From Pyrinomonadaceae bacterium (GTDB lineage: Bacteria; Acidobacteriota; Blastocatellia; Pyrinomonadales; Pyrinomonadaceae), in NCBI GenBank assembly GCA_031406255.1, contig JANOGZ010001263.1, positions 1 to 29,672 of the forward strand: a DNA stretch of 29,672 nucleotides, in the 5' to 3' direction. Of this stretch, positions 2,185 to 22,718 are shown piece after piece. A program made the translations under genes and the position numbers. Numbering within the stretch: the stretch's first letter is position 1; each line of letters opens with the position of its first letter. The notes beneath the pieces were generated by a model. That model was not told the DNA's origin, did not search any database, and saw nothing but the letters and a program-made list of their open reading frames with translations.

Positions 2185-2199
2185 GAAAGTCTTGACCCC

Positions 2200-2589: not shown

Positions 2590-2606
2590 AATCGTAAGTT
2601 TCCCCC

Positions 2607-4898
2607 TTACTTACGCAGATATTTTGTCATCCGCAGGCGCGTCCCGTCATCCACCCGCTCGAACTCCACGTCATCCATGAGCGTGCGGATTAATTTGAGT
2701 CCCCAGCCGCGACGTCCTTTAGTCCCTCCATGTGTTTCGTTGCCGTTGGAGCCCTGCCCCCCAGGCGATTCGCCATTTTGTAGTGCTGCCGGAGAAAGCG
2801 CAAGCCCACGGCTCGAGACTGTGACCACTAATTTATCACTTTCGACGCGAAAGCGTTGATAAATTTTCCGATCCGGGCTGAGACTGTGCTCCGCGGCATT
2901 GATGCAGGCTTCAACCACTGCGGTTTTGATTTGATTGATCGCCTCGGGTTGAAAATTGAGGCGGCGGGCAATTTGTTCGACAGTGTGGGCGGCGATCAAT
3001 TCCGTATCGCCGCCCATCGGGATCACCATCTCGAATTCGTCGAGCGCGACCGAAACGCTCCCGGCGATCCCTCCCGGGCCGAGGCGGGCCGTTAAGAGCT
3101 CGGCCTGCTGGCGGTTTGATCCGAAAGCTTCGCGCTCGTTCAGCAATTCGCTGGCTTCCGCGGAGAACCCCTCCGGCGAGATCAGCCACAGCCGCACGCG
3201 CCCGAAACCGTACGCGAGGCCAACCTGTGTCAGCCGATCGCACCATATCTCGACGAGGGCGCGCCCGGCCTCATGCGTGGCATCGATTTCGACGGCCAGC
3301 CAGACCACTTCGCTGGCATCGGTGTAAGGCACCGCATCGAAACCGTGAGCGACCGCGCACCGCTCCTCATCGCACAGCAACTGCATCGGCGCATGGAACG
3401 CGGCGCAACTCGCGGCATGCACGATCTGCGGTAGACGGATCAGGTCCGTTTCAGTATCGAGGCCGGATATAACCTCATCGGTAGTGATGCCGCGATACAT
3501 ACGGACGAAGCGGTCATGATGGAACAGGCTGGAGGGCACGCGCTGCGCATTGAAGCGTGTCAGTAGATCGCGCGGCTTGAGCGCCGCCGCGCGGCGGTAG
3601 TACCGCGCCATCGTCTGCGGCGCGCGTTTGAGGGTCTCGATCAGCATTCCCGCCACGACGAGGGCGCGCGGCTCGGCTGCGACCTGCAAGCGATAGCTCG
3701 CATGCAGATGATCGCGCCAGACCATGTCCGGGCCGATCTCCACAAAAGTTGCGTTAAGGCTCGCCAGTTCATAAACGTGGAGCCCGGTCATGACGCGTTG
3801 CAACTCGTCCGCATCAAGGTTCAATCTCCTGCGCCACACCTCGGCCGGAGATTTCCCTCCGGTGGTCGCGGCAAACTCATCGAGCACCCGTACCAGTGCG
3901 CGGCGCGTCGCCGGCGCCGGCGCGATCTCTTCCAGCAGCGCGTTAAAGCGGCGGTTGATGCGTCCCCCGAGCAATTCATCAACATATAGCTTCTGACATT
4001 CGAGGAAGCTTGTCAGCGCCCTCCCGGCATCATGCGCCGCCTGCATATAGGCCGTGATAAAAACCGGGTTGCCCGCAAACTGCTGGACCAGCAGATCGCG
4101 CGTCTCATCATTGATCGAGATGCCTTTGCTGAACGCCAACTGGTCAATGAGCCGTCGCGCCTCATGGTCGCTCAAAAGCTCGAGATGAAGCGTTTCCATC
4201 TGATCAAAACGCGCCGTCATCTCCTGCGTCCCGTGCACGACATCCAGCAATCGGCGGCGCAGGCCACTCATCACAAACGGTGATTCTGCTTGAAGCGCTG
4301 CCCGGGCGATTTCGGCGCCGAGGCTGACCTCCCCCTCCAGACATTCCGCGAGGTGAACATCGTCAAAGAGGACGAGCGTCCGTACGCCGCGCGCGGCGGC
4401 TTGCTGCGGCGCGCTCAGGCTCAGACGAATCAACGCGCGTTCGTCGCCTTCCTCGCGCGCGCGCTTGAATGTTTCGAAGAGGCGCTCGATCCACTCGTAA
4501 TCGGAGGGGGCCACCAGTTCCATCAGGGCCGGCAGCGGCGGCGGCGCGCCCAGCAACAGGGCGTCGCCACGATGGTGCGCCACGAGTTGGACGAGGAACG
4601 TGTGAAGAAATCGGCGCGCCGCATTGACGGTTGAATGATCGCTTCGCGTCCACGCAAAATAGATCGGAGAGACGCCCCCACGCTGGTTAAACAACTCATC
4701 ATATGCCTGCCGCAAGAGTTCTGACGCGCCGGCGGAAGGGGCGGTCAGCAGCAGCAGCCAGCGATGTCCGGCGCTATGCGGAGCAAGGCCCGTGATCTGC
4801 TGGAGCGCATCGCGGCGGCCGATGAAGTCCTCCGGCTGAATGCGACCGAGAACACGTCCGCCGGGGGGCGCGCGTTTATGTGGCTTCTCTGTCGGCAT
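2607..4898 (-). CDS. Multidomain protein: degenerate P-loop ATPase-like N-terminus + C-terminal RsbW/HATPase_c-like anti-sigma Ser kinase domain
   Basis: N-terminal DFIGRRDALQQI, pseudo-Walker A TAPSAGASELL and Walker B LVLFDD. C-terminal AVVEACINAAEH and GRRGWGLKLIRTLMDDVEF. I moved the start from 5060 to the ATG at 4898 (763 aa) because the longer ORF overlaps the GGDEF gene by about 185 nt. Confidence 0.8.
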   Translation of the reverse strand: MPTEKPHKRAPPGGRVLGRIQPEDFIGRRDALQQITGLAPHSAGHRWLLLLTAPSAGASELLRQAYDELFNQRGGVSPIYFAWTRSDHSTVNAARRFLHTFLVQLVAHHRGDALLLGAPPPLPALMELVAPSDYEWIERLFETFKRAREEGDERALIRLSLSAPQQAAARGVRTLVLFDDVHLAECLEGEVSLGAEIARAALQAESPFVMSGLRRRLLDVVHGTQEMTARFDQMETLHLELLSDHEARRLIDQLAFSKGISINDETRDLLVQQFAGNPVFITAYMQAAHDAGRALTSFLECQKLYVDELLGGRINRRFNALLEEIAPAPATRRALVRVLDEFAATTGGKSPAEVWRRRLNLDADELQRVMTGLHVYELASLNATFVEIGPDMVWRDHLHASYRLQVAAEPRALVVAGMLIETLKRAPQTMARYYRRAAALKPRDLLTRFNAQRVPSSLFHHDRFVRMYRGITTDEVISGLDTETDLIRLPQIVHAASCAAFHAPMQLLCDEERCAVAHGFDAVPYTDASEVVWLAVEIDATHEAGRALVEIWCDRLTQVGLAYGFGRVRLWLISPEGFSAEASELLNEREAFGSNRQQAELLTARLGPGGIAGSVSVALDEFEMVIPMGGDTELIAAHTVEQIARRLNFQPEAINQIKTAVVEACINAAEHSLSPDRKIYQRFRVESDKLVVTVSSRGLALSPAALQNGESPGGQGSNGNETHGGTKGRRGWGLKLIRTLMDDVEFERVDDGTRLRMTKYLRK

Positions 4899-6996
4899 TG
4901 TTCGATGAGGAATAGGGGTTTGAGGCGGTGAAAGAATTGATGCGGTTCTTACCGCGTTTCTTGGCGACGTAGAGAGCCTGATCGGCCGCGCCGATGATAC
5001 TGGCCGGCGTATCGTGTTCGGGCCCGAAGGCTGAAATGCCGATACTGACGGTGACCGCACCGAGCGGCTGGTTTTTTCCGTGCGGATACTGCATGCGCTC
5101 CACGCGCCGCCGAATGCGCTCGGAGATCACCTGTGCTTCGGAAAGATTTGTCTGCGGAAGTAGGATGCTGAATTCCTCGCCGCCGTAGCGCGAGGCGACG
5201 TCCGCCGACCGCAGCGCCGATTTCAAGCACTGCGCCGTCATCTCCAGCGCAAGATCACCCGCCTGATGCCCGTTGCGGTCGTTATAGTGCTTGAAATCGT
5301 CGATATCAACCATCAGGAAGCTCATCGGGAAGCGGTGACGCTTCGATCTCTCCAATTCTTCCGCCAGCCGCTCTTCGAGATAACGCCGGTTAAGCAATCC
5401 GGTCAGCGGATCGGTAATCGAGAGCAGCTGGAATTGCGTGGCCTTCTGGTGCCACTCCGCGCGATCGAGGGCGAGCGCCATCTGCGGCGCAAACATCTCC
5501 AGTAACCCCAGATCAATTTCATCGTAGATGCCGCCGCCGGCCTTATCCGTGACATTCAGGACTCCGACGCGGCGGCCGCCGATCATGATCGGATAGCTGA
5601 TAAACGAACCGGTTTTATAGCTTCGCTCGGCCGGAGCCGGATCGCGCCCCGAGGCGACCATATCACGCACGACCAGCGGTCGGCCTTCGCTGAGCACCGT
5701 GCCCGAGATGCTCTCGCCGAGGCGGGTGCGAGCCTCGCGGGCGGCCTCGGTGCACGGGCCGATCACGGCTTTGACCGCCAGTTCGTTGGCGCTTTCATCG
5801 AACATCTGGAGCGAGCCGCGCTCGGCATGAAGCAACTGCGTCGAGTGTTGCAGGATCGTCGCATAGGCGTCTTCGGGCTCGACCGCGTTGATATGATCCG
5901 TGAAGGCCTGAAGATGAAAGGCCGCGCGCATGCGCTTTTCCAGCTCTTCGCGGAGGCGGAGCACCTCAAACGGAAGCGCCATCTCGCGACAATAATCAGC
6001 GAGCGCCTGTCGCGTCGCGTCGCTTAAAGGAAGATCGCCAACAATCAACGCCCCTTTAACTTCTTCACCGACGATCAGCGGAAACAGCTCGGCGACCTCT
6101 TTCCGCTTCGAGGTCGAGCGGCCCTCCAAGGGCACTATGACCGATCCACCCTGCTTGACCGCCTGGAGCAAATTATTGTTTTTCGTATCGATCGCGATCC
6201 GCGGCGGGTTGGCAACGAACTTTCCCGTCGCGCAGGAACTGGTGGTGATGAACTCCTCGTCATTACGCAACATCAAGACGAGCGAATCGAGCCTGTGGGC
6301 TTCCGCTAGTGAACGGACGGCAGCGCTGCATACTTCTTTGAAAGTAGTGCCGGGAGGAAAGTAAGAAGAGTTGGGAGGGAAACCGGCTTTCGCCATACTG
6401 GTGGTGCTCGGCGTCGCAGGCACGCCCGCCGCCGCACCCGGTGGCCCCGTCGGCGTCGATTCGCCCGCCGGGCGCGCGGCAACCTCGGCCGCGGCTTGAG
6501 CGATGCGTGTCGCCAGATCGTCGAGGTCTTGAGGGGCGGCGAAGATCACGTTGCGGAACAGGTCAGCGGAGAGCAGTTCGCTGAGATCACCGCTGCGGAC
6601 GCGCTCGGCCAGCGCACGATAATCCGCGCTGTGGAGAAAAGCTCGTCCCCCGATCACAGCCAGGGGGCGTCCTTTCAGCAATCCGACGGGCTGCGTGAAG
6701 CAATTGAGTCCGGCGTGGCAGCGGTAACGCGTTGTGGTACCGGCGCTCATGGCGCGCGCATGGGCTTCTCCGCAGTAGGGATCACAGAGGTGCGCATGTG
6801 TCGGAGATGTTTGAAAAGCGTGGCAGATGGAATTGTTATTCGAGATGGCGAGCTCGGGCGGCTGATGCCCGTCGATCAGCAGAATGGCGAGATCGGTCGC
6901 CGAGGACAGCGATTCCTGCGCCTCCCACCATCCGGAGGGGACTTCCAGTCCGTCTGATTGGATCACGGTTCGCTGTGGGGCAGCAGCTTTATCCAT
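4876..6996 (-). CDS. Diguanylate cyclase with PocR-like sensor and GAF domain(s)
   Basis: TDPLTGLLNRR, DIDDFKHYNDRNGH, RYGGEEF with an intact RxxD I-site (RSAD). The N-terminus has a Cys/His PocR-like pattern (ICHAF..LCDPYC..YRCHAGL). The start could instead be the ATG at 7047. Confidence 0.92.
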   Translation of the reverse strand: MDKAAAPQRTVIQSDGLEVPSGWWEAQESLSSATDLAILLIDGHQPPELAISNNNSICHAFQTSPTHAHLCDPYCGEAHARAMSAGTTTRYRCHAGLNCFTQPVGLLKGRPLAVIGGRAFLHSADYRALAERVRSGDLSELLSADLFRNVIFAAPQDLDDLATRIAQAAAEVAARPAGESTPTGPPGAAAGVPATPSTTSMAKAGFPPNSSYFPPGTTFKEVCSAAVRSLAEAHRLDSLVLMLRNDEEFITTSSCATGKFVANPPRIAIDTKNNNLLQAVKQGGSVIVPLEGRSTSKRKEVAELFPLIVGEEVKGALIVGDLPLSDATRQALADYCREMALPFEVLRLREELEKRMRAAFHLQAFTDHINAVEPEDAYATILQHSTQLLHAERGSLQMFDESANELAVKAVIGPCTEAAREARTRLGESISGTVLSEGRPLVVRDMVASGRDPAPAERSYKTGSFISYPIMIGGRRVGVLNVTDKAGGGIYDEIDLGLLEMFAPQMALALDRAEWHQKATQFQLLSITDPLTGLLNRRYLEERLAEELERSKRHRFPMSFLMVDIDDFKHYNDRNGHQAGDLALEMTAQCLKSALRSADVASRYGGEEFSILLPQTNLSEAQVISERIRRRVERMQYPHGKNQPLGAVTVSIGISAFGPEHDTPASIIGAADQALYVAKKRGKNRINSFTASNPYSSSNNADREAT

Positions 6997-7160
6997 TACC
7001 AATTCTTCTAGTTTGGACAAGATGATCGAGTCCGATCCAAAACGCATTTGAAGGGCATAACGCGGTTCGCGTCTTCAGTGAGGACTGGTGACGCGTGACC
7101 GGACATGCGCCGCGGTCCACCAGGACCGCTCATGTTTTATGGTAAATACCCTATGAGCGC

Positions 7161-7276: not shown

Positions 7277-8431
<1,155 letters not shown>

Positions 8432-8434
8432 CCG

Positions 8435-9520
8435 TTAGTTTCCCGTGTGCTTGGGCGGCAGCGCCGTCGGCAAAGGCGCGCCGGGCGCCCCGGCGCTGCC
8501 GGCAGTGCGCTCATCACGCTCGTGGCACGATATCCCGTAAACTTCTTCAGCAAAATGGCAGAGCGAATGGTGATCCGGAGTCAGTTCGACGAAGGGGGGA
8601 AATTCTCGCCGGCAGATATCTTCGGCGCGCTCGCAGCGCGGCGCGAAGGGGCAGCCCGCGGGAAGGTGCGCAACATCCGGCGGCAGACCCGGTATCTGGT
8701 ACAGCGCGCCCTGCTCGGCGGTCGGGTCCGGCACAGACCGCAGTAACCCTTTGGTGTAGGGATTACCGGGGCAGGAGAAGAGTTCATCGGTCGGAGCCTG
8801 CTCGAAAACTTTTCCGGCGTACATCACGATGATGTGGTCGGTCATTCCGGCGACGACGCCTAGGTCATGCGTAATCAGGATCACGCTCGTGCCCGTCTCT
8901 CGCTTCAACTCTTTGATCAGCTCGAGAATTTGCGCCTGAATCGTCACGTCGAGCGCGGTCGTCGGCTCGTCGGCGATGAGCAGTTCCGGCTCGCACGACA
9001 GGGCCATCGCGATCATCACGCGCTGCCGCATCCCGCCCGAGAATTCATGCGGATAGCTATCGGCCCGCGTCGCGGCGTCGGGGATACCGACCATTTCAAG
9101 CATCTTGATGGCATGCCCATACGCCTGATCTTTCGTGTGGCCGAGATGCAGCTGCGTGATTTCCATCAGCTGCTTCGAGATCCGCATGAAGGGATTGAGC
9201 GACGTCATCGGGTCCTGGAAGATCATCGCGATTCGCTTGCCGCGGATGCGGCGCACCTCGGTCGGGGTCAGGTCGAGGATGTCCTGCCCGTCGAAGAGCA
9301 CTTCGCCGGAAACGATCTTTCCCGGAGGCTCCGGGATCAGACGCAGCACCGAGAGGTTTGTCACCGACTTGCCCGAACCCGACTCCCCGACGATGCCGAG
9401 CGTTTCGCCACGCTTGAGGTCGAAACTAATGCCGTCGACGGCTCTGACCGTGCCATCCTCGGTCTCGAAATACGTGCGGAGGTCTCTGACTGAAAGAAGA
9501 TTTCCGTCGCGGCTGCTCAT
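8435..9520 (-). CDS. oppD: Oligopeptide ABC transporter ATP-binding protein
   Basis: [30 protein letters not shown] and the C-terminal Cys cluster [10 protein letters not shown]. Confidence 0.93.
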
Positions 9521-9593
9521 GGGCTTACTCGTCCCTCGCTATGTTGATCTTTCGTTCGATGAAATATCCCTCCGGAGCGGCTCGCGGGTGGCC

Positions 9594-10679
9594 TTAAAAC
9601 TTTCGCATCTGCGGATCGAGCGCGTCGCGCAACCCGTCGCCGAGGAAATTCAGCGAGAAGAGCGTCAGCGCCATCGTGACGCCCGGAAAAATCAGTTGCC
9701 AGGGGAAGATCGCGATGTTTTGAATACCCTCGGCGGCCAGGCTCCCCCAGGACGCGAGCGGGGCCTGCACGCCGAGACCGAGAAATGAGAGAAAAGATTC
9801 CTGCAGCATCACGGAGGGGATCGTGAGCGTCGCGTACACGATGACGGGGCCGAGCGTATTCGGCACGATATGCTTGAAGATGATTTTGGCGGTCGAAACG
9901 CCGCCAGCCCGCGCCGCCAGCACGAATTCCTGATTCTTGAGCGAGATCACCTGCCCGCGAACGATGCGCGCCATCGTCAGCCACGAAACGGCTCCGAGGG
10001 CGATGAACAGCAGGAACAATTGACCGAGCGGCGTCTGCCCGCCGAACATCGCCAGCAGCACGATGACGATCATCATGTAGGGGATGGCATAGAGCACGTC
10101 GACGATCCGCATCATCACATCATCGACACGTCCTCCGAGATAACCGGCCGTCGCGCCGTAAGTGATACCGATGATGAGCGAAACGATCGTCGAGATGATG
10201 CCGACCATGAGCGAGATGCGGCCGCCTAAGAGCACGCGCGCCAGAATATCGCGGCCCGCGCTATCCGTCCCCATCGGATGCAACCACGAGAACGAACCGT
10301 CAGGCGCTGTAAAGGGCCCAAAGGATCTGATCAGATTGGAATCTTCCGGAATGTAATCGTAGGTGTAGCCGGTGGTATTGCGAATGATCGGCGGCCCGAC
10401 GAGCGACGCGAGGATAATGATGGCGACCACGATCATCCCGAAAACCGCCAGCTTGTTCTTCAGTAACCGCCGCCACGCGTCCTTCCAGAGAGACGTGCCG
10501 GAGACGGTATCCGTGCCGAGGTCAACCGAGCGCACGTCGCCTTCGCCGACGGCGAGTTCGGGCGCGGTGTGAATCATGTCGCCCGCGCGCGCGCGCACCG
10601 GCGGCGCCGGCGGCGTGCCGAGCGGCGTCAGCGCCGGCTCGGCCTGTTCAGTTTGCGCAAGAGGTCGTTCGTCCTTCAT
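9594..10679 (-). CDS. oppC: Oligopeptide ABC transporter permease
   Basis: LWKDAWRRLLKNKLA, HPMGTDSAGRDIL, EFVLAARAGG (EAA-like loop) and GDGLRDALDP. Confidence 0.93.
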   Translation of the reverse strand: MKDERPLAQTEQAEPALTPLGTPPAPPVRARAGDMIHTAPELAVGEGDVRSVDLGTDTVSGTSLWKDAWRRLLKNKLAVFGMIVVAIIILASLVGPPIIRNTTGYTYDYIPEDSNLIRSFGPFTAPDGSFSWLHPMGTDSAGRDILARVLLGGRISLMVGIISTIVSLIIGITYGATAGYLGGRVDDVMMRIVDVLYAIPYMMIVIVLLAMFGGQTPLGQLFLLFIALGAVSWLTMARIVRGQVISLKNQEFVLAARAGGVSTAKIIFKHIVPNTLGPVIVYATLTIPSVMLQESFLSFLGLGVQAPLASWGSLAAEGIQNIAIFPWQLIFPGVTMALTLFSLNFLGDGLRDALDPQMRKF

Positions 10680-10684
10680 GGTTT

Positions 10685-11605
10685 TTAGTACCGTATGCGT
10701 GGGTCGATGTAAGCGTAGGCCATGTCAACCAGAAAGTTGAAGAGCAAAATCAGGATCGAGATGAAAGCGACGATGCCGATGATCAGCGGTTCATCGCGGT
10801 TCAGATTCGCGTTGATGAAGTAGTTTCCGAGCCCCGGCAGCGCGAAGATTCTCTCGACGACGACCGTTCCGGTCACGAGAAAAGCCAGCGCCGGGCCGGT
10901 GAATGAAACGACCGGAAGCAAACCGCCGCGCAGCGCGTGCCGCATGACGACCTGCCGCTCCCGCAAACCCTTCGCGCGGGCCGTCCGGATATAATCGGCG
11001 CGCAGCACCTCGAGCATTCCGGAACGCGTCAGGCGCGCGATATAAGCCATGTAGATCGCCGAGAGCGTGATCACCGGCATCACCAGATTCCAGCTCGGGA
11101 AACCATTCCAGCGCGCCGGGGGCAGCCAGTACAAGGTCAGCGAAAAGATGAGCACGAGGATCGGTCCGAGCACGAAATTAGGAAGCGAGATGCCGAGCAT
11201 CGCCAGCGCCATCGAGGCGTAATCCAGGCGCGAGTTTTGCTTCAGCGCGGCCAGTGTCCCGGCGATGACGCCGACGGCCAGCGCCAGCAGGTATGCCATG
11301 ATCCCCAGCGTCGCTGAAATAGGAAGGGTGCGCGCCAGGATGCGGAGGACGGATTGCCCCTCATACTTCAGCGATGTGCCGAAATCACCGCGCAGGACGT
11401 TGCCGATCATCCGGCCGTACTGCACATACCACGGCTTATCGAGCCCGTATTTCTCGCGCAGGTTTTTTTCGATGGCGGGCGGGAGCTTTTTCTCGGACGT
11501 GTAGAAATTGCCGGGCGCGAGCCTGATCAAGCCCCACGTGAGGCTGATGACGATCAACATCATTGGCACAATGACGATCAAACGTCGGATGGCGAATCGA
11601 AACAT
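10685..11605 (-). CDS. oppB: Oligopeptide ABC transporter permease
   Basis: YGLDKP, GDFGTS, DYIRTARAKGL and YAYIDPRIRY. Confidence 0.93.
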   Translation of the reverse strand: MFRFAIRRLIVIVPMMLIVISLTWGLIRLAPGNFYTSEKKLPPAIEKNLREKYGLDKPWYVQYGRMIGNVLRGDFGTSLKYEGQSVLRILARTLPISATLGIMAYLLALAVGVIAGTLAALKQNSRLDYASMALAMLGISLPNFVLGPILVLIFSLTLYWLPPARWNGFPSWNLVMPVITLSAIYMAYIARLTRSGMLEVLRADYIRTARAKGLRERQVVMRHALRGGLLPVVSFTGPALAFLVTGTVVVERIFALPGLGNYFINANLNRDEPLIIGIVAFISILILLFNFLVDMAYAYIDPRIRY

Positions 11606-11620
11606 CGGCTTTCTTCCTCG

Positions 11621-13666
11621 CTAATCGGCCGTTTTGAGTAAATCGTTGACGCTCGGGAAATCGGTCGTCTTCGGGAGACCCCGATCCCACTTCGCGGCAT
11701 CGTGCTCGATGTAGACGAATTTCCACGCGTGGAGCGTCTGCGGATTCGGATACAAACCCTTCACATAAGGCTTCTTCACCCAGTTGGTGGCGTTCGTGTA
11801 GAGCGGAAGGATCGGCTGCGCATCGAGCAGGATGGCCTCGGCCCTGGCCAGCAATTCGTACCGCTTCTGTGGATCGAGCGTGCGGTTGGCCTCGTCCAGC
11901 ATCGCGACGTATTTCGGATCCGTCCACCCCGTGCCGTTGTCACCCTCGAGAGTGGTGAACAGATTGAGGAAGGTAAACGGGTCCATGTAATCGCCTACCC
12001 ACGCGCCGCGGATCGTCCCCTTGTATTCGAGCTTGGAACGATAGTTGAGAAACGTCTTCCACTCCATATTCTTGAGCGGGATCGTAATCCCCAGATTCTG
12101 CTTCCACTGCGCCTGCAGAAACTCGGCGATCTGTTTGTTTCGCTCCTGCGTGTTGTAGGTGTATTCCACATCCTTGATCGGAAATTTCTTCGGATCGTAA
12201 TTTCCGCTGGCGTCGCGGTATCCGGCCTCGGCGAGAAGTTTTTTCGCTTTTTCCGGATCAAAGGGATCGCCCTTCGGCTGCGGATAATTGGGGAAAATAC
12301 CTTCCGGAGTGAAGGCCGTCAGCGGCTTCACGACCCTCTGGTAGTCGGCAAGCGCCACCTTATCAATCGCCATATTGAAAGCCTTGCGTACGCGCTTGTC
12401 ATTCATCGGCGGCTTCGTCGTGTTGATCATGACATACGTGGTCGCCACTTCCGGCGCATCCATGTAGTCTTTCAGCGGACGGATCAGGTCGACCCAGCTG
12501 GTTGGAACCGTGTGGTTGAGAACCCCATCAACCTCGCCCGCCTTGTAGAGATTCATCATCGTCGTTGAATCTTCGAGCGGATAAAAGTTGATCTGATCGA
12601 GCTTGACGTTGGCGGCATCCCAGTACATCGGATCGCGCACCACGATCAACTCATTGTAGGGCCGCCACGTTTGCAGCTTGAACGGGCCGCTCGTCACGAT
12701 GTTGGCCGGCTCGGTCCAGGCCACTCCGTGTTTTTCGATCGCTTTACGCGGCACCAGACGGAAAAGCTGATACGGAAGCAGACCGATGAAGAAAGGCGCC
12801 GGCTGGGTGAGCGTCAGTCGCAGGGTGTAGTCATCGATGGCCTCGACGCCCATATCTTCAGCCTTCACGGGGACGAACTCTTTGCCCTCGACGGCCGCTT
12901 TGAGCTTCGGATTCGCCTCGATCGCCGTGGCGCGCTTTTTCTCGTCGCTCGGCAGCACGAGTCGCGCCGGCGATTGCATGAAGCGGTTAAACGGCGTATC
13001 GAGCGACGGATTTTGTCCGGTCGCGGGGAGTTCCGGCGAGTGTGGTGTAGCTATTGCGGGCGTCGCGCTCGGCGGCTCTTGTTGCGGCGGCGGTGGTTGC
13101 AGCGCCGGGGCGGCCCCGGCCTTCTCCGTTTCAGCCTTCACATCCCTTTCCAGCACATATTGGCCGGTGCGCGCGTCGCGCACGAAGACGTCTTTCTCGT
13201 TGTAGCTTTGCGCGTATTTAATGTAATAGGCGAGATAGGCGGAGCGCGCCGCGAGTTCGGGCGAGAGACCGCGCCGGAAGGTATAGACGAAGTCCTGTGC
13301 GGTGATCGGCTCGCCATTCGACCAGCGCGCATTCTTCCTGAGGTGGAAGACGAATCCGGACGAGTCGGAGTTGGTCTCCCAGCGCTCGGCGACCGCCGGT
13401 ATCGCCTCCATCGTCACCGGATGATATTCGACCAGGCCGTCATACAGAGCCATGTAGATGCGCGCTTCGGGCTGGCCGGTGCTGACCTGCGGGTCGAGCG
13501 ATTCGGGCTCGGAGCCGGAAACGTAGCGCAGGATCTGGCCCTCGGGCGGCTCGGTCTTGCCAAAATACTCGGCATTGCTCGCCTGACTGGTGCAGGCGGT
13601 GGCGAGCAATGAAAGCGTCACGAGAACCACGCCTAGTTGGAACCAACGGGCACGAATATTAATCAT
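11621..13666 (-). CDS. oppA: Oligopeptide ABC transporter substrate-binding lipoprotein
   Basis: Lipobox LATAC, EPESLDP, RWSNGEPITAQDF, VTSGPF and RGAWVGDY. RBS GGAG precedes the ATG. Confidence 0.92.
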   Translation of the reverse strand: MINIRARWFQLGVVLVTLSLLATACTSQASNAEYFGKTEPPEGQILRYVSGSEPESLDPQVSTGQPEARIYMALYDGLVEYHPVTMEAIPAVAERWETNSDSSGFVFHLRKNARWSNGEPITAQDFVYTFRRGLSPELAARSAYLAYYIKYAQSYNEKDVFVRDARTGQYVLERDVKAETEKAGAAPALQPPPPQQEPPSATPAIATPHSPELPATGQNPSLDTPFNRFMQSPARLVLPSDEKKRATAIEANPKLKAAVEGKEFVPVKAEDMGVEAIDDYTLRLTLTQPAPFFIGLLPYQLFRLVPRKAIEKHGVAWTEPANIVTSGPFKLQTWRPYNELIVVRDPMYWDAANVKLDQINFYPLEDSTTMMNLYKAGEVDGVLNHTVPTSWVDLIRPLKDYMDAPEVATTYVMINTTKPPMNDKRVRKAFNMAIDKVALADYQRVVKPLTAFTPEGIFPNYPQPKGDPFDPEKAKKLLAEAGYRDASGNYDPKKFPIKDVEYTYNTQERNKQIAEFLQAQWKQNLGITIPLKNMEWKTFLNYRSKLEYKGTIRGAWVGDYMDPFTFLNLFTTLEGDNGTGWTDPKYVAMLDEANRTLDPQKRYELLARAEAILLDAQPILPLYTNATNWVKKPYVKGLYPNPQTLHAWKFVYIEHDAAKWDRGLPKTTDFPSVNDLLKTAD

Positions 13667-14007
13667 CGCCTTTTACTCCGGTACTTCTGGTTAACCCGAC
13701 ATTATCGCCGCTTCGGCAAACCGTCGGGAAGGTGACGCGGGGAAATCTGATCAAGCCCCATATGCTGGGTTCGGGGGAACAATTTGGTTAAAGTTACTTC
13801 GGCGGACGGGGGAGCACGAACAAGACCGCGACCTACCAGTCTTAAGCATTCAGGGGCTGGCCTCACGTTATCATGCGTCCGCTTTCCCAATCAAGATGTA
13901 CTGCGCCGCGACGGGGTTAAACTCAACGATGCTCAGAGCGGAACATCTCGTTGCTTCCGGCGCGGCAGATTTCAAGCCGGATATTTACTCGCTACGTTCG
14001 ATCCGGA

Positions 14008-15927
14008 TCACTCGGCCTGCTTCGGCGGTTTCCAGGACGTATCTATCCGCACGCGTTTTAACGAAGGCGCATCCAGCAGATTGGCGTCAAAGCCGCTGAC
14101 ATAGGGCTTTACGAGCGCGTAGGAGGAAGCGAAATAGACGGGGATGGCCGGCAGCTCCAGCAGCGCCTGCTCTTCAGTGAGGATTTGTCGAGGCGCCGAG
14201 ATGTCAGCCGTTTGCTGCACTTCGGTCGCTCCGGACTGCGCCTCTCGCACCACTGGGGAAGGTTCGGCTGTCGCCTCCGGCGATGCTTCGCCGAGCTCTC
14301 CCACATCCTCCCCGGAGGTCCTGGCCGGCTGATCGAATATGGCCAAAATGGTCGCCTCCTCATCCATTGTTTGCATCACCACGCTGCGCCGCGCCAGATC
14401 ATAATCACCGGCACGCAGCGCCGCTTCATAATCATCCCAGCCGCGCATGTCCACATCCGTCTCCACCCCGAGAGCAGTGCGCCACATCTCGGCGACCGCC
14501 AGCGCCACGGTGCGGTGCTGTTCATTGCGATTAATGAGCAGACGTATGCGCGGGAAATTTGCCCCGCCGGGAAATCCCGCCTCGGACAGCAGACGCCGGG
14601 CTCTTTCCACATCATGCACGAGAGCGTGCGCGGTTCGCTTTCTCGCACCCGTGGTTTGATCGCCCGTTGACGGCACCGGGATAAACCTTCGCGCCGGTTC
14701 TGTTATGCCCTCCATCGTATCGGCGCTCAAACGATCGCGATCGAGCGCGATGGTGAGCGCTTCACGCACACGCCGGTCAGTGAACGGAGCACGCGTCATA
14801 TTAAAACTATAGTAAGTCAGCGCACCATACGTGACACGGCGAAAATCCTTGTATGGAGCCAGCAGTTTGAGCGCCAGCGGCTCGAAAGCGGCGTTGGTCA
14901 CCGCGTCCACAGCGCCCCCACGATAAGCGGCGAGCGCCTCTTCCGCATCACGCGCCGCGACAAAACGGACACGATCCAGCGCCACCGCCTTGCTGTCCCA
15001 GTAGTTTCCGTCGCGTTCCAGCACGACCCCGTCGGATGCCCGATCGGTAAGCCGAAAGGCGCCGTTTGAGACAACACCCGGCGCTGGTTGCTCCTCTGGG
15101 CCATGCCCCCCGCTCCCTTCGCTTGAAGAAACATCAGCATCGTTTTTCGTGCTCAGCTCATGCACGGGACGAAAGACCGGATGGGCCACCAGCGCCGGGA
15201 AATTTCGGTCAGGCCGCTGCAGGCGAACACGAAGGACGTGTTGACCGACGGCTTCGGCGCCGAATGTGGCTCCGCCGTCGGGCGGCGTGAGAGATTCTTT
15301 CGCTTGCGGCTTGGCCGGCGGAGAAACGCTTCCGCTCTCCTGCTGCTGCTGTTCGGGCGCGGGCGGCGCGTCCGCGGAAAATTCTTTACTCTCACCTCTT
15401 CTGCGCGCGCCTTCGATGTTTTCTAAAAGGCGCGCGTGCGGCGCGCGTTCGCCGAGCTGCCTGATGCGTTGCCACGAGCGCACGAAATCCTGCGCCGTGA
15501 CCGGGTCACCGTTCGACCAGCGCGCATCCGGACGAAGATAAAACGTCCAGTGGCGTCCATCCGGCGAGGATTCCCAGCGGGTCGCCACCGCCGAGACGGG
15601 GGCCAGATTGCGCGGGTCATAATCGGTCAGCCCTTCAAACATCGCGCGCACGACATCAGTGTCGGGCGGAGCCGCCGCCAGCGCCGGATCAAAGATTCGC
15701 GGCAATCCTCCATCACTCCAGCGAAACTCCTGCGCGCGCCGAGGCGTCACCACACGCCCGTAGTAGGGCTCCACCTCCTCCGACATGAAACATCCGCCGC
15801 CCATCACCGCAATAATCAACACTGTTATGAGCGCGACGCGTAACCACCTGGCGGACGAATCGAGACGACGTACGGAAACGGCGCGACTGCCATCGGTGGG
15901 CCTAGTTGTCGCTGTCGGTCGCATCAT
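14008..15927 (-). CDS. Second, divergent OppA-family substrate-binding lipoprotein
   Basis: Hydrophobic stretch then GGGC lipobox, FDPALA, RWSNGDPVTAQDF, VSNGAF and DRRVREAL. The start is uncertain (15927, or 15960 as in the ORF track). Confidence 0.85.
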   Translation of the reverse strand: MMRPTATTRPTDGSRAVSVRRLDSSARWLRVALITVLIIAVMGGGCFMSEEVEPYYGRVVTPRRAQEFRWSDGGLPRIFDPALAAAPPDTDVVRAMFEGLTDYDPRNLAPVSAVATRWESSPDGRHWTFYLRPDARWSNGDPVTAQDFVRSWQRIRQLGERAPHARLLENIEGARRRGESKEFSADAPPAPEQQQQESGSVSPPAKPQAKESLTPPDGGATFGAEAVGQHVLRVRLQRPDRNFPALVAHPVFRPVHELSTKNDADVSSSEGSGGHGPEEQPAPGVVSNGAFRLTDRASDGVVLERDGNYWDSKAVALDRVRFVAARDAEEALAAYRGGAVDAVTNAAFEPLALKLLAPYKDFRRVTYGALTYYSFNMTRAPFTDRRVREALTIALDRDRLSADTMEGITEPARRFIPVPSTGDQTTGARKRTAHALVHDVERARRLLSEAGFPGGANFPRIRLLINRNEQHRTVALAVAEMWRTALGVETDVDMRGWDDYEAALRAGDYDLARRSVVMQTMDEEATILAIFDQPARTSGEDVGELGEASPEATAEPSPVVREAQSGATEVQQTADISAPRQILTEEQALLELPAIPVYFASSYALVKPYVSGFDANLLDAPSLKRVRIDTSWKPPKQAE

Positions 15928-16018
15928 CTTAAATCGAATATTTTCCCGTCCCGTGTACATTCTCGAAATATTACTGCCGTCTCCTGAAAGGTGCGCGGCT
16001 CGTCATGAGCGCTCGGTC

Positions 16019-17844: not shown

Positions 17845-18261
17845 TCAGGTGAACTTGACGGAAGTCGGCGTATCGCTGGTGTAGGCCGTGATCTCCGGCT
17901 CATCGAGAAACCGCTCGACGGTCAGGACCAGATCTTTGATCCCGCCCGGTTTTTTCAAAAATTCGTTGACGCCGGCGGCGCGCGCCTCGCGCTCGCAGTC
18001 GCTCGCCGTGAACATAATGATGGGAGTATCGCGCCGCTGCGACAATTCGCGCGCGCGACACAGGAGTTCTACTCCGCCCACACCGGGAAGCTCAAAGTCG
18101 AGGACGATGATGTCGTAATGCTCCGCGCTCTCGAGCTTCTTTAACGCGGCTATCCCATCGCGGCAGACGTCGACCTGCCAGCCTTCGAGTTCAAATAATT
18201 GCTTGACGGTGAAGAGTACCAGATCGTAGTCCTCAACATACAGGATTTTGATCTGCTGCAA
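17845..18261 (-). CDS. Stand-alone receiver-domain (CheY-like) response regulator
   Basis: ILYVED, IIVLDFELPG (phospho-Asp), IIMFTA and FLKKP are all intact, with no output domain. The start is uncertain: TTG at 18261 with an upstream GAAGG, or GTG at 18333. Confidence 0.85.
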   Translation of the reverse strand: MQQIKILYVEDYDLVLFTVKQLFELEGWQVDVCRDGIAALKKLESAEHYDIIVLDFELPGVGGVELLCRARELSQRRDTPIIMFTASDCEREARAAGVNEFLKKPGGIKDLVLTVERFLDEPEITAYTSDTPTSVKFT

Positions 18262-18348
18262 TGTTTTGTGCTGCCCTTCAGGAATGTGAGATATGACGCA
18301 TACCGCGTCCGAACTTAAACGGTGCAAGAACACTTCTATCTCACAAAC

Positions 18349-18364
18349 AGCAATTACCGTTCCC
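18349..18364 (-). promoter_or_regulatory. Candidate sigma54 (-24/-12) promoter upstream of the receiver gene
   Basis: Minus strand reads GGGAACGGTAATTGCT against the consensus TGGCACG-N4-TTGCW. GG-N10-GC spacing is exact, and ACG and TTGCT match. Confidence 0.6.
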
Positions 18365-18647
18365 TCACGAAATTCCGGAGTGGCGATTTTTCAGTATTGT
18401 TTTGACCGGGGTTGGTTACAGAGCGGAGGCGGAAAGCTTTATGACCCGGAGAAGATAATCCTCTCCTGATCAATACCCCCGGTACGGAAACGGCGACGGA
18501 GTGAAATAGTTACGCTGTTGAATTTCAAACGCTGGATAAAAATGCTTGTCATCACTCCGTTTACATCTTCTTGCAGGCAACTTTGCAAGATGTATAGGGA
18601 TGCTACAACCACCATCATGTCGAGATTCGACAGGGGATCTTTAACTT

Positions 18648-20963
18648 TCACTGTCCGGCTTGCTTGGTTTTATGAAGGGCGTTACGCTCGCGGTGCTTTT
18701 CGCCACGGATAATGCTGACGCGGCGTCGTTGCGGGGGTCGCCTCGCGTCGCGCAGCTCTTTATGGCGGCCGTTCAGAATAAAAGACAGTCCCTGATGGGT
18801 AATACCGAGGAGTCGCGCGGCGCGCGTCAGTTGCCCGTCGGCGACTTCCAGCGCGGAGCGAATCAGGTTTGCCTCGAAGCGCAAAACTTCTTCGTCGAGC
18901 GAGCACCCGGCCCACGGACTCGCAAAGCCGGAGGTCTGGACCTGGCGGAGGGCGAGAGTTTCCACGGCCGCCGCGGGAATTTCAGTGTTATCCGCTGCCG
19001 TCAGGAAAGTGCGCTCGATGAGGGTGCGCAGTTCACGCGCGTTGCCCGCCAAATGCAGCCGCTGCATCGCATCGAGGCACGCCGGCGCAAAGGTCACTTG
19101 TTTGTGATACTGCCGCTCAGCCTGCGCGATGAAGTGGCGGGCGATGGCTGGAATGTCCTCGGTGCGTTGCCGGAGGGGCGGAAGCTCAATGATAAATGCG
19201 CTCAGTCGATAGTAGAGATCAGGGCTGTAGTGCCCGCGCGCCATATCCTGTTTAAGATTATGGTTCGTCGCCGCGATGATCCGTATATCCACCTGCTCCG
19301 AAGCCGAAGCGCCCAGCGAAGTCACCTCACCATATTCGATCAATCGCAAGAGCTTGGCCTGCGCTGCGGCGCTTAGCTCACCCACCTCATCGAGGAACAA
19401 TGTGCCGCCGACGGCGCCGCGCACCACTCCCGTATGATCGCCGACCGCATCGGTGAAGCTGCCCTTCCGGTGGCCGAACAATTGCGACTCAATGAGCGTT
19501 TCGCACAACGCCGCGCAATTGATCGCCACAAACCGTCCGGCGCGCCCGCTCCATTCATGCATCAGTCGCGCCAGCACTTCCTTGCCCGAGCCCGTCTCGC
19601 CGGTGATCAATGCCGGCCGGTCAGTGATGGCGACCGCCCGCGCATAGTGAAGAACGGCGGTGGTCTTCTCCGAGGCATGCACAAAAGCGGATACTTCGGA
19701 CGCCTTTCCCGAAGCCGATGACGTATCGAGCGCGATGATGCGCCGCGCGCACGCGCGCAGTCGCGCGAGCGTTTCCCCATGCCGTGAGTCGGTCAGAAGG
19801 CGGTCCGCGCGTTCGTAGGTTTTTCGCAACTCATCGGCGGCGAGCCACCCGTCTAGTTCCTCAATCAACGTCAGTGTCGCCCTGCCCGCACCCTCGATAT
19901 CGCCCGCCGTCTCCGCCATATCGACGGCACGTTCGAGCGTCGCCTGCGCTTGCTGATGACGATTCAATCTCGCCAGCGCGACCGCATAGGTCGTCAGAGC
20001 TTCGGCCAGAAGGGCTTGTTCGCCGCCCTTCTCCAGGCTATTGACCGCCCCGCGGGCAGCTTTTTCAGCCGCGGAGTTGCGCCCTTCCACCAGCAGAACA
20101 CGGGCTCGTGTTTCATCAACCTGCGCGGCACTACCCTTATCCTTGAGGCCGATGAACAGACGATGGGCTCTTTCTAAATGCTCTTCCGCATCGCTTAGCT
20201 GTCCGACTCTCAAAAGCAGATAACCGATATTATTCTCTACGCGGGCACGGTATCGCGTATGGCCAGCCTGTTCGAAGTGATAACTCGCCGCCGCGTATTC
20301 GATCAGCGCCTGATCGGTATACTCGCTTCGCGCCTCGGCGACCCCGAGCGTCTCCAACGTATTGCCGAGCGAGTTATGAAATTTGCCTTTGAGGGCGCAA
20401 CTGGTACTCGCTTCAAACAGTGGAGAGGCCTCGGTCAGTAACCGTAGCGCGTCATTCAAGCGGTTGTTTGACATCTCGATGATCGAGCTGCGTAACAAAA
20501 TCAGCGCTTTGAGTTCACTCTCATCGTCGCCAGTTTGCCCTAACGCATCGCGTAGAATAATGCGCGCCTCGTCAAACGCGCCCTCACGCCAGTAGCACAA
20601 CGCCAGGTCGCTTCGTGCCTCGATAGTTTTTGCCGTCTCGCTGAGCGTTTCGTAGATCGTCAGGCTCTCGCTGATCAAGTCCTTGGCGATCTCCTGTGCG
20701 CCTTCAATCTGCCGCGCGCTGCCGATCCATCCCGAGAGCGCCCCCACACGCAGCAGCACTTCAGCCCCGGTCCGCTCATCCAGATCGCCGAGCGCGGGAC
20801 GCTCACCGACACGCGTCCACAAGTCACCCAGCGCATTTCGCGCCGCTTCGTAGCTCCCGGCTTCTTCGAATTCGCGGGCGAGCGCACAACGAAATCGCAC
20901 GCGCTCGCTATAATTACACGCCGGGTTATCGATGCGTTGTATTAATTGGGCAACTAAGTTCAT
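18648..20963 (-). CDS. TPR-repeat, sigma54-interaction-type AAA+ transcriptional regulator with Fis-type HTH
   Basis: About 420 aa of helical TPR-like repeats ([16 protein letters not shown]), then [46 protein letters not shown] and the [16 protein letters not shown]. No receiver domain. Confidence 0.9.
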
Positions 20964-21056
20964 GTGAGGATTAGCTTTCTACCTTTTAGCAAGGTTGTTT
21001 GCGAAATAGCGATTTTTCTTCTCAATGGTGTTATTATCTCCCCGCTCAGCCCCAAA

Positions 21057-21092
21057 AGTTGGTTTACTGCGCGGTAACAAACCAACTATACT
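21057..21092 (+). promoter_or_regulatory. Inverted-repeat operator overlapping a sigma70-like promoter of the small peptide gene
   Basis: AGTTGGTTT-N13-AAACCAACT (21057-21087) overlaps TTTACT-N18-TATACT (21063-21092). Confidence 0.45.
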
Positions 21093-21120
21093 TGATCTTC
21101 ATATCCACGGGAGAAAAACG

Positions 21121-21333
21121 ATGAAACCGTTACGACAGCTCTGCGCCGTCGTTTTACTGACGACGATTTTTGTCCTTCCCGTCTTTGCCGAGGATGGACA
21201 GATGCCGACGCCCACGACCCCACCACAAGTGATCGTCATCCAGCCGCCACCGACGGGTGGTGATCCGGGCGAAGTGGATTCGGTGATGCAGGCTCTTCTG
21301 AACATCTTGCATGGCGTAATATTTTTTGTCTAG
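21121..21333 (+). CDS. Small secreted peptide precursor (70 aa): signal peptide + Pro/Thr-rich segment + hydrophobic C-terminal helix
   Basis: RBS GGGAGA lies 6 nt before the ATG at 21121. The sequence is MKPLRQLCAVVLLTTIFVLPVFA (basic n-region, h-region, VFA cleavage site) followed by EDGQMPTPTTPPQVIVIQPPPTGGDPGEVDSVMQALLNILHGVIFFV. Confidence 0.75.
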   Translation: MKPLRQLCAVVLLTTIFVLPVFAEDGQMPTPTTPPQVIVIQPPPTGGDPGEVDSVMQALLNILHGVIFFV

Positions 21334-21785
21334 GCGATTAATGCCCTTGCCCCGGGGCCCGACTTCTCGTTCTTTTGTTACCTCGTTGACGGCTTGATTT
21401 GAAATGCGTATGCCGGTAACGCCGCTGAGTCTCGGGGAAGGATACATCCAGCAGGTGCGATCGTTTATAGCTTCCCTGACGCGATGACACTGGAGGCATT
21501 GGATTTTTGTGTCATCGCGCCCCGGTCGCTAGCCACTGCTATTCAAGAACCCCGAGCAACGGATGAATCCTATCCTTACTTCCGCGCGAAAATCAACATT
21601 TTCCGAGCCTGGAGGCTTAACCCGTGTTTCCTGAAGATCACCGCCGGGCGCGCCCGCGCCTGTCGGCGCAGGATCCGTCAGCTCAAGAAGCTGGCACTGT
21701 CATGCCAGCCGCGACGGCTGGTCAGGGTTGCATCGTCACTGATTGTTGGCGCAAGATGCGGCGCATGATTCATCAAGCGCGGCGA

Positions 21786-22718
21786 ATGTACATACATAAA
21801 AGTCATCATATCGGAGTGGTGGTGTTAAGTGTCGCGTACGTGTGCGCCGGGTTGACGGCCTGTACCGGCGTCCTGCGCACGCGTGGCTCCGCCGGCCCCG
21901 TGCAGCGTTATGAGCTGACGGGCAAGGTCGTTTCCGTTGATAAAGCCGGACGCAAACTTGTCATTGCGCATGAGGAGGTGCCGGGGCTGATGGAAGCCAT
22001 GACGATGCCCTTCACGCTCAAAGCCGAGTGGGCTTTTGACGCCGTCGGTGAGGGTGATCGCGTACAGGCAACGCTCGTCGTGGCCGATGACAGTTCATGG
22101 CTCGAGAATCCGGTAATCACCAAAGCCAGCGGGGCAGACAGTGGAACCGCCGGCGACGCGGACGGGGCGACACCCGCGCCGGGCGCCGAAGTCATGGATT
22201 TTTCGCTCGTCAATCAGGATGGAAAACCCATTCGGTTGCGCGGGTATCGCGGGCAGGCGCTACTGATCACATTTATTTACACGCGCTGTCCGCTGCCGGA
22301 CTACTGCACGCTCATGAGCACAAACTTTGCCGGGATCGAACGGGAGTTGCAAAATGATCCGGCGCTGCGCGACAAGACACATCTCCTCAGCGTGAGCATC
22401 GATCCCGCGCATGACACGCCCAAAGTCCTGCGCAGTTATGGGGCGGCGCACACCGAGAGATACGACCGGGAAAATTTCAAGCACTGGGAGTTCGCCACCG
22501 GCGCCCCCGGGGAAATACAGCGCATGGCGCGGTTTTTCGGCCTGACTTACTACAGCGAAAAAGACCAGATAGTTCATTCGCTGCGCACCGCTCTCGTCGC
22601 GCCTGACGGGCGTCTCGCCAAAATCTATCACGGCAATGAATGGAAGCCCTCAGAGGTCGTCGGGGAGCTGCGGAAACTGTTCGGTGAAAACGGGCACCCC
22701 GCTGAAGCGCACAAATAA
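21786..22718 (+). CDS. CusF-like copper-binding domain fused to SCO1/SenC domain, lipoprotein
   Basis: Lipobox LTAC, CusF-like HEEVPGLMEAMTMPF, and SCO motifs FSLVNQDG, FIYTRCPLPDYC and IVHS. The start is uncertain (ATG at 21756, 21765 or 21786). Confidence 0.85.
   Translation: MYIHKSHHIGVVVLSVAYVCAGLTACTGVLRTRGSAGPVQRYELTGKVVSVDKAGRKLVIAHEEVPGLMEAMTMPFTLKAEWAFDAVGEGDRVQATLVVADDSSWLENPVITKASGADSGTAGDADGATPAPGAEVMDFSLVNQDGKPIRLRGYRGQALLITFIYTRCPLPDYCTLMSTNFAGIERELQNDPALRDKTHLLSVSIDPAHDTPKVLRSYGAAHTERYDRENFKHWEFATGAPGEIQRMARFFGLTYYSEKDQIVHSLRTALVAPDGRLAKIYHGNEWKPSEVVGELRKLFGENGHPAEAHK

Follow-up and report, generated by a model that had tools for sequence, protein, structure and literature searches.

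Peptide signalling through cytoplasmic tetratricopeptide repeat (TPR) receptors has, to our knowledge, been treated as a speciality of the Gram-positive Bacillota and their phages, with Gram-negative bacteria being thought to rely on small molecules for signalling. The RRNPP(A) systems of the Bacillota (Rap-Phr, NprR-NprX, PlcR-PapR, PrgX, Rgg-SHP and AimR-AimP) place a small gene for a Sec-type propeptide beside a gene for a cytoplasmic TPR receptor. Here we describe a 70-residue protein encoded on the forward strand at 21121-21333 of a stretch of 29,672 nucleotides (the window) from a Pyrinomonadaceae bacterium of the phylum Acidobacteriota, together with the TPR regulator encoded divergently from it. 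The window spans an entire contig of a metagenome-assembled genome (5.29 Mb in 1384 contigs, 94% complete). The logic of the pair resembles that of the RRNPP systems, from which it differs in receptor architecture, propeptide design and host phylum. Our favoured reading, held tentatively and at somewhat less than an even chance, is that the small protein is a Sec-exported pro-peptide and the cognate partner of the divergent cytoplasmic TPR regulator, the two forming an RRNPP-like pair.

The RRNPP signature has been formulated as a propeptide of 10-100 residues, a Sec/SPI signal, a receptor of 250-500 residues, the presence of TPRs and the direct neighbourhood of the two genes (PMC10075063). 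Four of these five features are found in the window pair, with the Sec signal being a rule-based prediction, and the receptor exceeds the length range, as it comprises 771 residues including an AAA+ module. Paralogous receptors with only TPR and helix-turn-helix (HTH) regions, at 466-530 residues, mostly show all five, a few being just over 500 residues long. The likeness further includes a receptor that also bears a DNA-binding domain, many paralogous pairs per genome, a palindromic site before the peptide gene and several signal copies in some propeptides, as in the tandemly duplicated pheromones inside Rap-Phr propeptides (PMC11343458). Against this, the present host is diderm; its receptor has a C-terminal Fis-type HTH_8 domain where the RRNPP receptors have, besides their TPRs, an N-terminal XRE-type HTH or a phosphatase-type 3-helix bundle; a sigma-54 AAA+ module or a receiver (REC) domain may be fused to the receptor as an option; the two genes are divergent; and a hydrophobic helix is conserved at the C-terminus of every propeptide. 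We found no homology to RRNPP receptors at the sequence level, and the binding and import of peptides are here proposed. Our literature searches found no prior description of an RRNPP-like system in Acidobacteriota or other diderm bacteria.

The small gene runs from an ATG at 21121 to a stop codon at 21331-21333. Its longest open frame begins further upstream at ATG 21025 and would encode 102 residues, a start that we ruled out because the relatives all begin at the MK... methionine, because a Shine-Dalgarno sequence (GGGAGA, 21109-21114) lies 6 nt 5' of ATG 21121, and because ATG 21025, just upstream of a conserved promoter element at 21029-21037, almost abuts it. AGGAGA-type sites occupy the equivalent position in all the relatives inspected, and about 11 of the top 150 relatives show N-terminal extensions. 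An earlier, sequence-only reading of the window had warned that annotation could easily miss or mis-start this gene: the open reading frame (ORF) track indeed starts it at 21025, but the protein collection already had the correct 70-residue call.

The same reading had placed an ORF at these coordinates and divided its product into a signal peptide, a Pro-rich core and a hydrophobic tail, and with this both the sequence and an AlphaFold2 model agree. The model, computed with 61 relatives in the alignment (mean predicted local distance difference test score, pLDDT, of 68), has helices at residues 2-22 and 49-69 separated by an unstructured segment at 23-48. Residues 1-23 (21121-21189) constitute a predicted Sec signal peptide with K2 and R5, a 16-residue hydrophobic core and a predicted VFA|ED cut, with V at -3, A at -1 and E24 following, as had been proposed; the export and cleavage calls are rule-based, relying on the (-3,-1) rule and the conservation of A-x-A|G throughout the family. 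Residues 24-48 (21190-21264) form an acidic, Pro/Thr-rich middle, predicted to be disordered from the lack of secondary structure in the model. Residues 49-70 (21265-21330) are predicted to form an amphipathic to hydrophobic helix (pLDDT about 73) that ends the protein with FFV rather than SLF, its final residue being V where most family members have F. The protein has no lipobox, which would place a Cys at +1: E or G follows the predicted cut, and the sole Cys is residue 8, within the signal peptide. Nor does it show a PEP-CTERM-like sorting signal, in which a motif is followed by a transmembrane helix and a terminal basic cluster, as it ends in a hydrophobic helix without basic residues, and an NCBIfam sorting-domain search gave no match at E<=1. 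The pro-peptide-like appearance that the sequence-only reading had noted is supported.

The disordered loop between two hydrophobic helices in the model might also be seen as a membrane hairpin, with an uncleaved signal anchor, the C-terminal tail as a second span and a periplasmic Pro-rich loop, making a small bitopic membrane protein that would tether the regulator there or modulate it; tethering had likewise been raised in the earlier reading. We consider such a topology distinctly improbable, since the strong conservation of A-x-A followed by G is what one expects of a cleaved signal peptide, and the tail, with only 13-16 apolar residues and interruptions by Q, N, S or H on one face, is short for a span. 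Moreover, no cytoplasmic residues follow the tail, which would leave nothing for a cytoplasmic protein to hold.

A word-indexed search recovered a homologue of 69 residues with 68% identity (P0002), in which the signal peptide and the tail are kept and the middle is variable, and a six-frame search of related genomes yielded many weak matches, each of them a small ORF of the same build. Among the 1.84 billion searched, a profile of 61 members matched 2905 metagenomic cluster representatives at E<=1e-3 and, at the stricter E<=1e-10, 926; almost all the matches are 65-100 residues long and align end to end, and none of them bears a name. Likewise, no named family for the protein was found in Pfam, NCBIfam, the ESM Atlas, the source names or the cluster members. 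The window protein itself matches the family profile at 53-85 bits, the lower value being that against the wider profile, to which it is an atypical member. A lack of homologues under purifying selection was among the refuting conditions set in the sequence-only reading, and such homologues exist: a rough Nei-Gojobori estimate of the ratio of nonsynonymous to synonymous rates (dN/dS) from eight pairs put the signal peptide at 0.20, the middle at 0.42 and the tail at 0.25. This ORF is a genuine gene, far beyond chance, and purifying selection acts on it.

The family is phyletically narrow. In a sample of Pyrinomonadaceae it is present in 89 of 151 genomes and 37 of 60 genera, with 1-12 copies in a genome (G133 and G032, both unpublished, are counted here, and their sequences were used nowhere), while a phylum-wide sample has it in 6 of 15 Pyrinomonadaceae genomes, the window's own counted, and in none of 236 others. 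The TPR domain family of the regulator shows the same narrow distribution. All the loci retrieved with the window regulator as query are from Pyrinomonadaceae of the Acidobacteriota.

The regulator gene lies at 18648-20963 on the reverse strand, divergent from the small gene and separated from it by 157 bp. It had been suggested that a profile be made from small ORFs next to homologous regulators; this profile proved strongly positive, in that among 80 related loci retrieved with the regulator as query, often several per genome, about 72 carry a family member detected by an HMM, in each case encoded on the opposite strand, with its end some 130-200 bp short of the regulator start. The association can be read in either direction. 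Counted from the small genes of five near-complete genomes, 42 of 43 have a TPR regulator as divergent neighbour (median gap about 147 bp); counted from the TPR regulators of the same genomes, 42 of 50 have a small-gene partner. Next to some regulators that lack a profile match there is still a divergent small ORF, built alike but with other repeat units (for instance GETxTPPC x3 or GNITVSxx x5). The contig of the homologue P0002 has the same divergent layout, and the window's genome has a second pair (C532:8600-9463), cut by the contig end. The pairing is near-obligate, a point that the sequence-only reading had not noted.

Certain loci vary on this arrangement. In the window's genome a TPR fragment at another contig end (C876:13179-13812) apparently stops after the TPR part. 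One genome carries two modules in tandem, 3 kb apart (G142:C1:2971160-2975851), and another has two small genes 400 bp apart beside a single regulator (G099:C7:1423352-1424224); both are signs of recent local duplication. In one orthologous group of 15 loci (including L036-L045, about 2440-4320 on the reverse strand), the small gene is followed by a gene for CstA, a member of a carbon-starvation peptide/pyruvate transporter family, and then by one for an H+-pyrophosphatase; the CstA link may be incidental.

We analysed the architectures of the paired regulators through Pfam scans and length classes, which revealed three forms, each found with the small gene. The first, of about 755-795 residues, is the TPR-AAA+-HTH_8 form and includes the window regulator. 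The second, of about 620-675 residues, is a TPR-HTH_8-REC form with the REC domain fused in 23 of 27 cases. The third has only the TPRs and HTH_8 in open frames of about 466-530 residues. Since the small gene pairs with all three output architectures, it is tied to the TPR input side and not to the sigma-54 output. In the window regulator a TPR region of about 415 residues (matching TPR_12, TPR_8, TPR_1 and TPR_19) is followed by the AAA+ sigma-54 interaction domain (PF00158, 2e-56) and HTH_8 (PF02954, 1.8e-6); its NCBIfam matches concern the AAA+ part only, all of them below the cut-offs. The Walker motifs of the AAA+ domain are conserved. The GAFTGA loop, which makes the contact to sigma-54, in contrast reads GSFTDA in the window regulator (residues 501-506) and GSFTNA, GSFADA, GSFPEA or others in the relatives, with the F kept and the T and second G not always so.

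The TPR domain was modelled by AlphaFold2 as a 20-helix superhelix (pLDDT 92), whose best PDB matches in Foldseek are peptide-binding TPR domains, led by LGN/Pins (E 1e-9) and followed by Rap bound to Phr (4gyo, 8rsv), with E of about 5e-6 and template modelling scores of 0.5-0.6. Among the paralogues the domain has a mean column identity of 65% and invariant Asn, Arg and Tyr residues. Complex predictions of the TPR domain with residues 24-70 of the small protein scored 0.35, 0.02 and 0.02 and are not used as evidence.

Downstream of the regulator on the same strand lies a single-domain REC gene (17845-18333, Response_reg 1.5e-18) whose start codon is uncertain, GTG 18333 being only about 5 nt from the predicted transcription start. 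Ahead of it is a candidate sigma-54 promoter with GG-N10-GC spacing, GGGAACGGTAATTGCT (18349-18364, reverse strand), 284 nt past the regulator stop, with rpoN found in the genome. TTGCAA-type repeats at 18564-18592 (reverse strand), about 225 nt upstream of this promoter, are a possible enhancer site. Comparable elements, TGGCC[CT]-N5-nTGCA, occur 72-93 nt past the stop in 12 of 30 AAA+-type relatives and are absent there in the short forms; at AAA+-type loci such an element is followed by a single-domain receiver gene, sometimes with a gene for an AraC-type HTH protein. A separate downstream REC gene is found at 8 of 32 AAA+-type loci, and given that the REC domain is fused to the C-terminus of the regulator in the mid-length relatives, the separate protein may be a functional partner of the regulator.

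A closer look at the mature proteins shows that the disordered middle carries short units. Among the 209 members with a predicted cut the site mostly reads A-x-A (AFA in 84), and in most of them the mature protein begins with G-[DEQ]-[IM]. This is the start of a cassette with the consensus G-[DEQ]-[IM]-x-T-[GP]-[VGI]-[TAV], whose first copy directly follows the signal-peptide cut. In 117 of the 209 members, as against 3.2 in shuffles, the six residues that open the mature protein occur again further inside it, with at least four of six identical. The spacing between cassettes peaks at 8 residues, corresponding to tandem arrays of up to five copies, and at 19-21 residues, corresponding to a cassette with a Pro-rich linker. 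Within the 8-residue arrays, A or T stands ahead of the next G in 40 of 43 instances, which is reminiscent of the A|G junction where the signal peptide is cut. Tryptic-type sites made up of basic residues at the cassette ends were considered and rejected, for such residues are seen only in a few paralogues of one genome, positions 7 and 8 being generally V/I and A/T.

We also compared cassettes within and between proteins, defining them by G-x-[IM] only and scoring positions 4-6: copies within one protein share 1.31 of the 3 residues and those from different proteins 0.85, a difference reached in none of 1000 permutations. Different cassettes are present among the paralogues of one genome. An orthologue set (L042, L044, L050, L057 and L087) retains both copies of G(D/E)ILTPG as the linker drifts, and one member of it has E instead of D in both copies. 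The window protein belongs to a 'DG' subtype, (E)DGQMxTP, with a single clear cassette, (E)DGQMPTP, at 21190-21213 and a degenerate second, GGDPGE, at about 21256-21273; relatives of the same subtype (L003 and L007) repeat the cassette. The GQMPTP core that the sequence-only reading had recognized is one copy of a family-wide cassette repeated inside most relatives, which that reading had not noticed. This layout is reminiscent of multi-copy precursors, such as those of the yeast alpha-factor, neuropeptides and tandem Phr, in which a signal peptide is followed by near-identical short units with spacers and the units are kept alike within one precursor, although the boundaries here are not dibasic and instead have A or T before the next G.

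Repeated short cores in one precursor also occur in several classes of ribosomally synthesized and post-translationally modified peptides (RiPPs), and some of the cassettes contain Cys or Thr. It could accordingly be asked whether the cassettes are core peptides for modifying enzymes encoded elsewhere in the genome. This seems to us very improbable indeed. The earlier statement that no RiPP-modifying enzymes are adjacent holds in the window, where the neighbours encode the TPR/sigma-54 activator and a CusF-SCO1 fusion protein; across about 80 loci, with their otherwise variable neighbourhoods, no gene for a maturase, protease or transporter is conserved next to the small gene, and only the regulator is. 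A Sec signal peptide would be unusual for a RiPP precursor, and a comparison with the NCBIfam precursor families gave no match beyond noise.

The intergenic region contains two conserved DNA elements. An extended -10 element, TGTTATTAT (21029-21037, forward strand), is predicted from an alignment by eye and from the pattern TGnTAnnAT, which is present in 46 of 76 upstream regions as against 3.9 in shuffles, at a median of 88 nt before the ATG; in the window it implies a leader of about 75 nt. A sigma-70 match, TTTACT-18-TATACT at 21063-21092, was rejected because it is not conserved in the relatives, unlike the extended -10. The second element is an inverted repeat, GCAA-N6-TTGC, which a fixed-pattern count found in 34 of 76 intergenic regions compared to 0.17 in shuffles, its centre lying 33-36 nt before the -10 in most regions, i.e. 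near -46. The window copy (20989-21002), which has no second instance in the 29.7 kb, is a candidate operator for the regulator and is centred about 35 nt upstream of the -10; the TTGCAA-type repeats near the REC gene do not fit the exact pattern. In other paralogue groups this position is taken by inverted repeats of different sequence. The small-gene promoter has no visible -35, which, taken with the fixed distance of the inverted repeat, is what one would expect of an activator-dependent, autoregulated signal gene. There is no GG-N10-GC sigma-54 promoter before the small gene in the window and almost none in 72 relatives, which argues that the gene is not a canonical sigma-54 target.

Small-gene leaders are unusually long and often contain a hairpin. 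The window leader (21044-21120) has one, GTTGGTTT-N13-AAACCAAC, at 21058-21086, which is not more stable than shuffles (z -0.47) and has no Rfam match; a terminator-like site after the stop (21353-21369) is likewise no more stable than shuffles (z +0.87).

The small protein might instead be the regulated end product of the locus, secreted or associated with the envelope, such as an anionic surface-active, matrix or adhesion peptide, with the TPR regulator sensing something else and acting on its expression by way of the intergenic inverted repeat. Besides the inverted repeat at its fixed position, the apparently monocistronic nature of the small gene and the uniformity of the mature proteins, which are acidic, Pro/Thr-rich and provided with an amphipathic tail, speak for such a role, and it would dispense with the return of the protein or its pieces to the cytoplasm, a step that is only inferred. 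Yet it leaves unexplained why the small gene stays with the TPR-HTH core whichever of the three output architectures the latter has, and why nearly every copy comes with a regulator of its own. The AAA+-type regulators need sigma-54 promoters, which the small genes lack, and repeats that are alike within a protein and different between paralogues suggest recognition units over bulk material. The mature proteins also have a mean net charge of -5.5 and are negative in 99.5% of the cases, unlike typical membrane-active bacteriocins. On balance we regard an end-product role as unlikely, while taking it to be the most serious of the alternatives.

The near 1:1 pairing, the link to the input domain and the repeats that are alike within a protein and different between paralogues are the reasons for which we favour a ligand precursor. 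Computation shows that the gene exists, belongs to a family and is paired, and it shows the repeated cassettes, the conservation of the DNA elements and the architectures of the regulators; beyond this we infer export, cleavage, processing, re-import, binding and the direction of regulation. The small gene would be transcribed alone from the extended -10 promoter with a long leader and its product exported, whereupon signal peptidase would cut after VFA to expose the first cassette, (E)DGQMPTP. Further proteolysis would free short cassette peptides. The conserved C-terminal helix might serve as a common handle, rather than a specificity determinant, either for membrane retention or, as an apolar C-terminal tag, for a processing protease of the PDZ type. 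The peptides would then re-enter the cell, possibly by way of the Opp importer encoded nearby, and bind the concave face of the TPR superhelix, switching the regulator. As a putative sigma-54 activator, the window regulator would drive the sigma-54-type promoter ahead of the downstream receiver-domain gene and might also act in a feedback on the small gene, by way of the GCAA-N6-TTGC repeat with its centre near -46.

The importer in question is a complete Opp-type oligopeptide ATP-binding cassette system identified by Pfam at 7277-15960 on the reverse strand, comprising two OppA-like proteins (14008-15960 and 11621-13666), OppB, OppC, OppD and OppF, and situated 3-13 kb downstream of the regulator on the same strand. 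It fits peptide uptake, though its presence is not evidence of use.

Several observations weigh against a pro-peptide and receptor. The Opp operon is a common housekeeping system and is not linked to the module in the other loci examined. As the host is diderm, its outer membrane would need to be passed twice by the peptides. The structural likeness of the modelled TPR domain to Rap is generic TPR similarity, falling below that to the eukaryotic LGN. Judging from its GSFTDA loop, which is variable in the relatives, the sigma-54 coupling of the regulator is plausible, not certain. The window protein, with one clear cassette and a degenerate second, is an atypical member. Further, the tail and not the cassettes is the best conserved part of the small protein: in 1173 related pairs the identity is 0.68 for the tail, 0.59 for the signal peptide, 0.58 for the first cassette, 0.53 for internal cassettes and 0.44 for linkers. 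The sequence-only reading had offered the tail either as a tether of the pro-peptide for a second cleavage or as the active part itself; being the best conserved part, it argues for a job common to all paralogues and not for specificity. The conservation of both TPR domain and tail would suit a shared, non-specific interaction at least as readily as it would paralogue-specific peptides.

TPR domains recognize clients by their C-terminal peptides, and such a common interaction could take place before export, with the TPR domain binding the unexported precursor, most likely its hydrophobic C-terminus with the free carboxylate. The pair would then act as a monitor of export or of the envelope, or the small protein as an anti-activator removed by export. 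Apart from being the most conserved region, the tail ends the protein exactly, mostly as [SA]-[LVI]-F with a final F in 170 of 214 members; the TPR domain is well conserved, including its invariant residues; and no re-import step is necessary. The divergent layout also recalls PspF/PspA, in which the partner controls the activator. With enhancer-binding proteins of the PspF type, and with those under unusual N-terminal sensors, the window regulator shares the AAA+ sigma-54 domain and HTH_8, a divergent and possibly controlling neighbour gene, a candidate sigma-54 promoter nearby and the presence of rpoN. It differs in that its sensor is a 415-residue TPR superhelix, also found without the AAA+ domain, in the GSFTDA loop, and in that its partner is a 70-residue protein predicted to be exported, PspA being cytoplasmic. 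A generic monitor could hardly account for as many as 12 paralogous pairs in one genome whose cassettes differ, and it gives no role to the cassette repeats or to their likeness within a protein. We therefore judge cytoplasmic sensing of the precursor to be rather improbable.

Returning to the pro-peptide and its receptor, we consider it possible, with slightly less confidence than for the individual pair, that a Pyrinomonadaceae cell operates up to a dozen parallel peptide channels, each with a multi-cassette propeptide and a dedicated TPR receptor. As part of this proposal, the channels would have three outputs: sigma-54 activation, a receiver domain and plain DNA binding.

On the other side of the small gene, the window has a gene for a CusF-SCO1/SenC fusion at 21624-22718, the likely true start of which is at about 21759 (MRRM..., with a lipobox LTAC). 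A palindrome, TGGCACTGTCATGCCA, at 21692-21707, about 50-65 nt before this likely start, resembles a sigma-54 -24 box, but its GG-GC spacing is one base short; it may be the operator of a copper-responsive regulator. A cluster of signalling genes occupies 910-7047 on the reverse strand and encodes a GAF protein with an HD-GYP-type HD_5 domain (910-2184), an 817-residue protein with a HATPase_c_2 domain (2607-5060) and a PocR-GAF-GGDEF diguanylate cyclase (4876-7047).

Should the signalling reading prove wrong, there still stands an exported (as predicted) small-protein family of more than 900 members that is unnamed in curated libraries, along with a partner regulator family with swappable output domains. 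If it is right, this would be the first RRNPP-like peptide signalling through a cytoplasmic receptor in a diderm phylum and the first peptide-gated sigma-54 activator, hence a new type of sensor for such activators. A module amplified to 1-12 copies per genome in a family of soil Acidobacteria that is abundant and has hardly been cultivated would then widen the picture of peptide signalling, and it would offer a testable handle on cell-cell or cell-envelope signalling in these bacteria.

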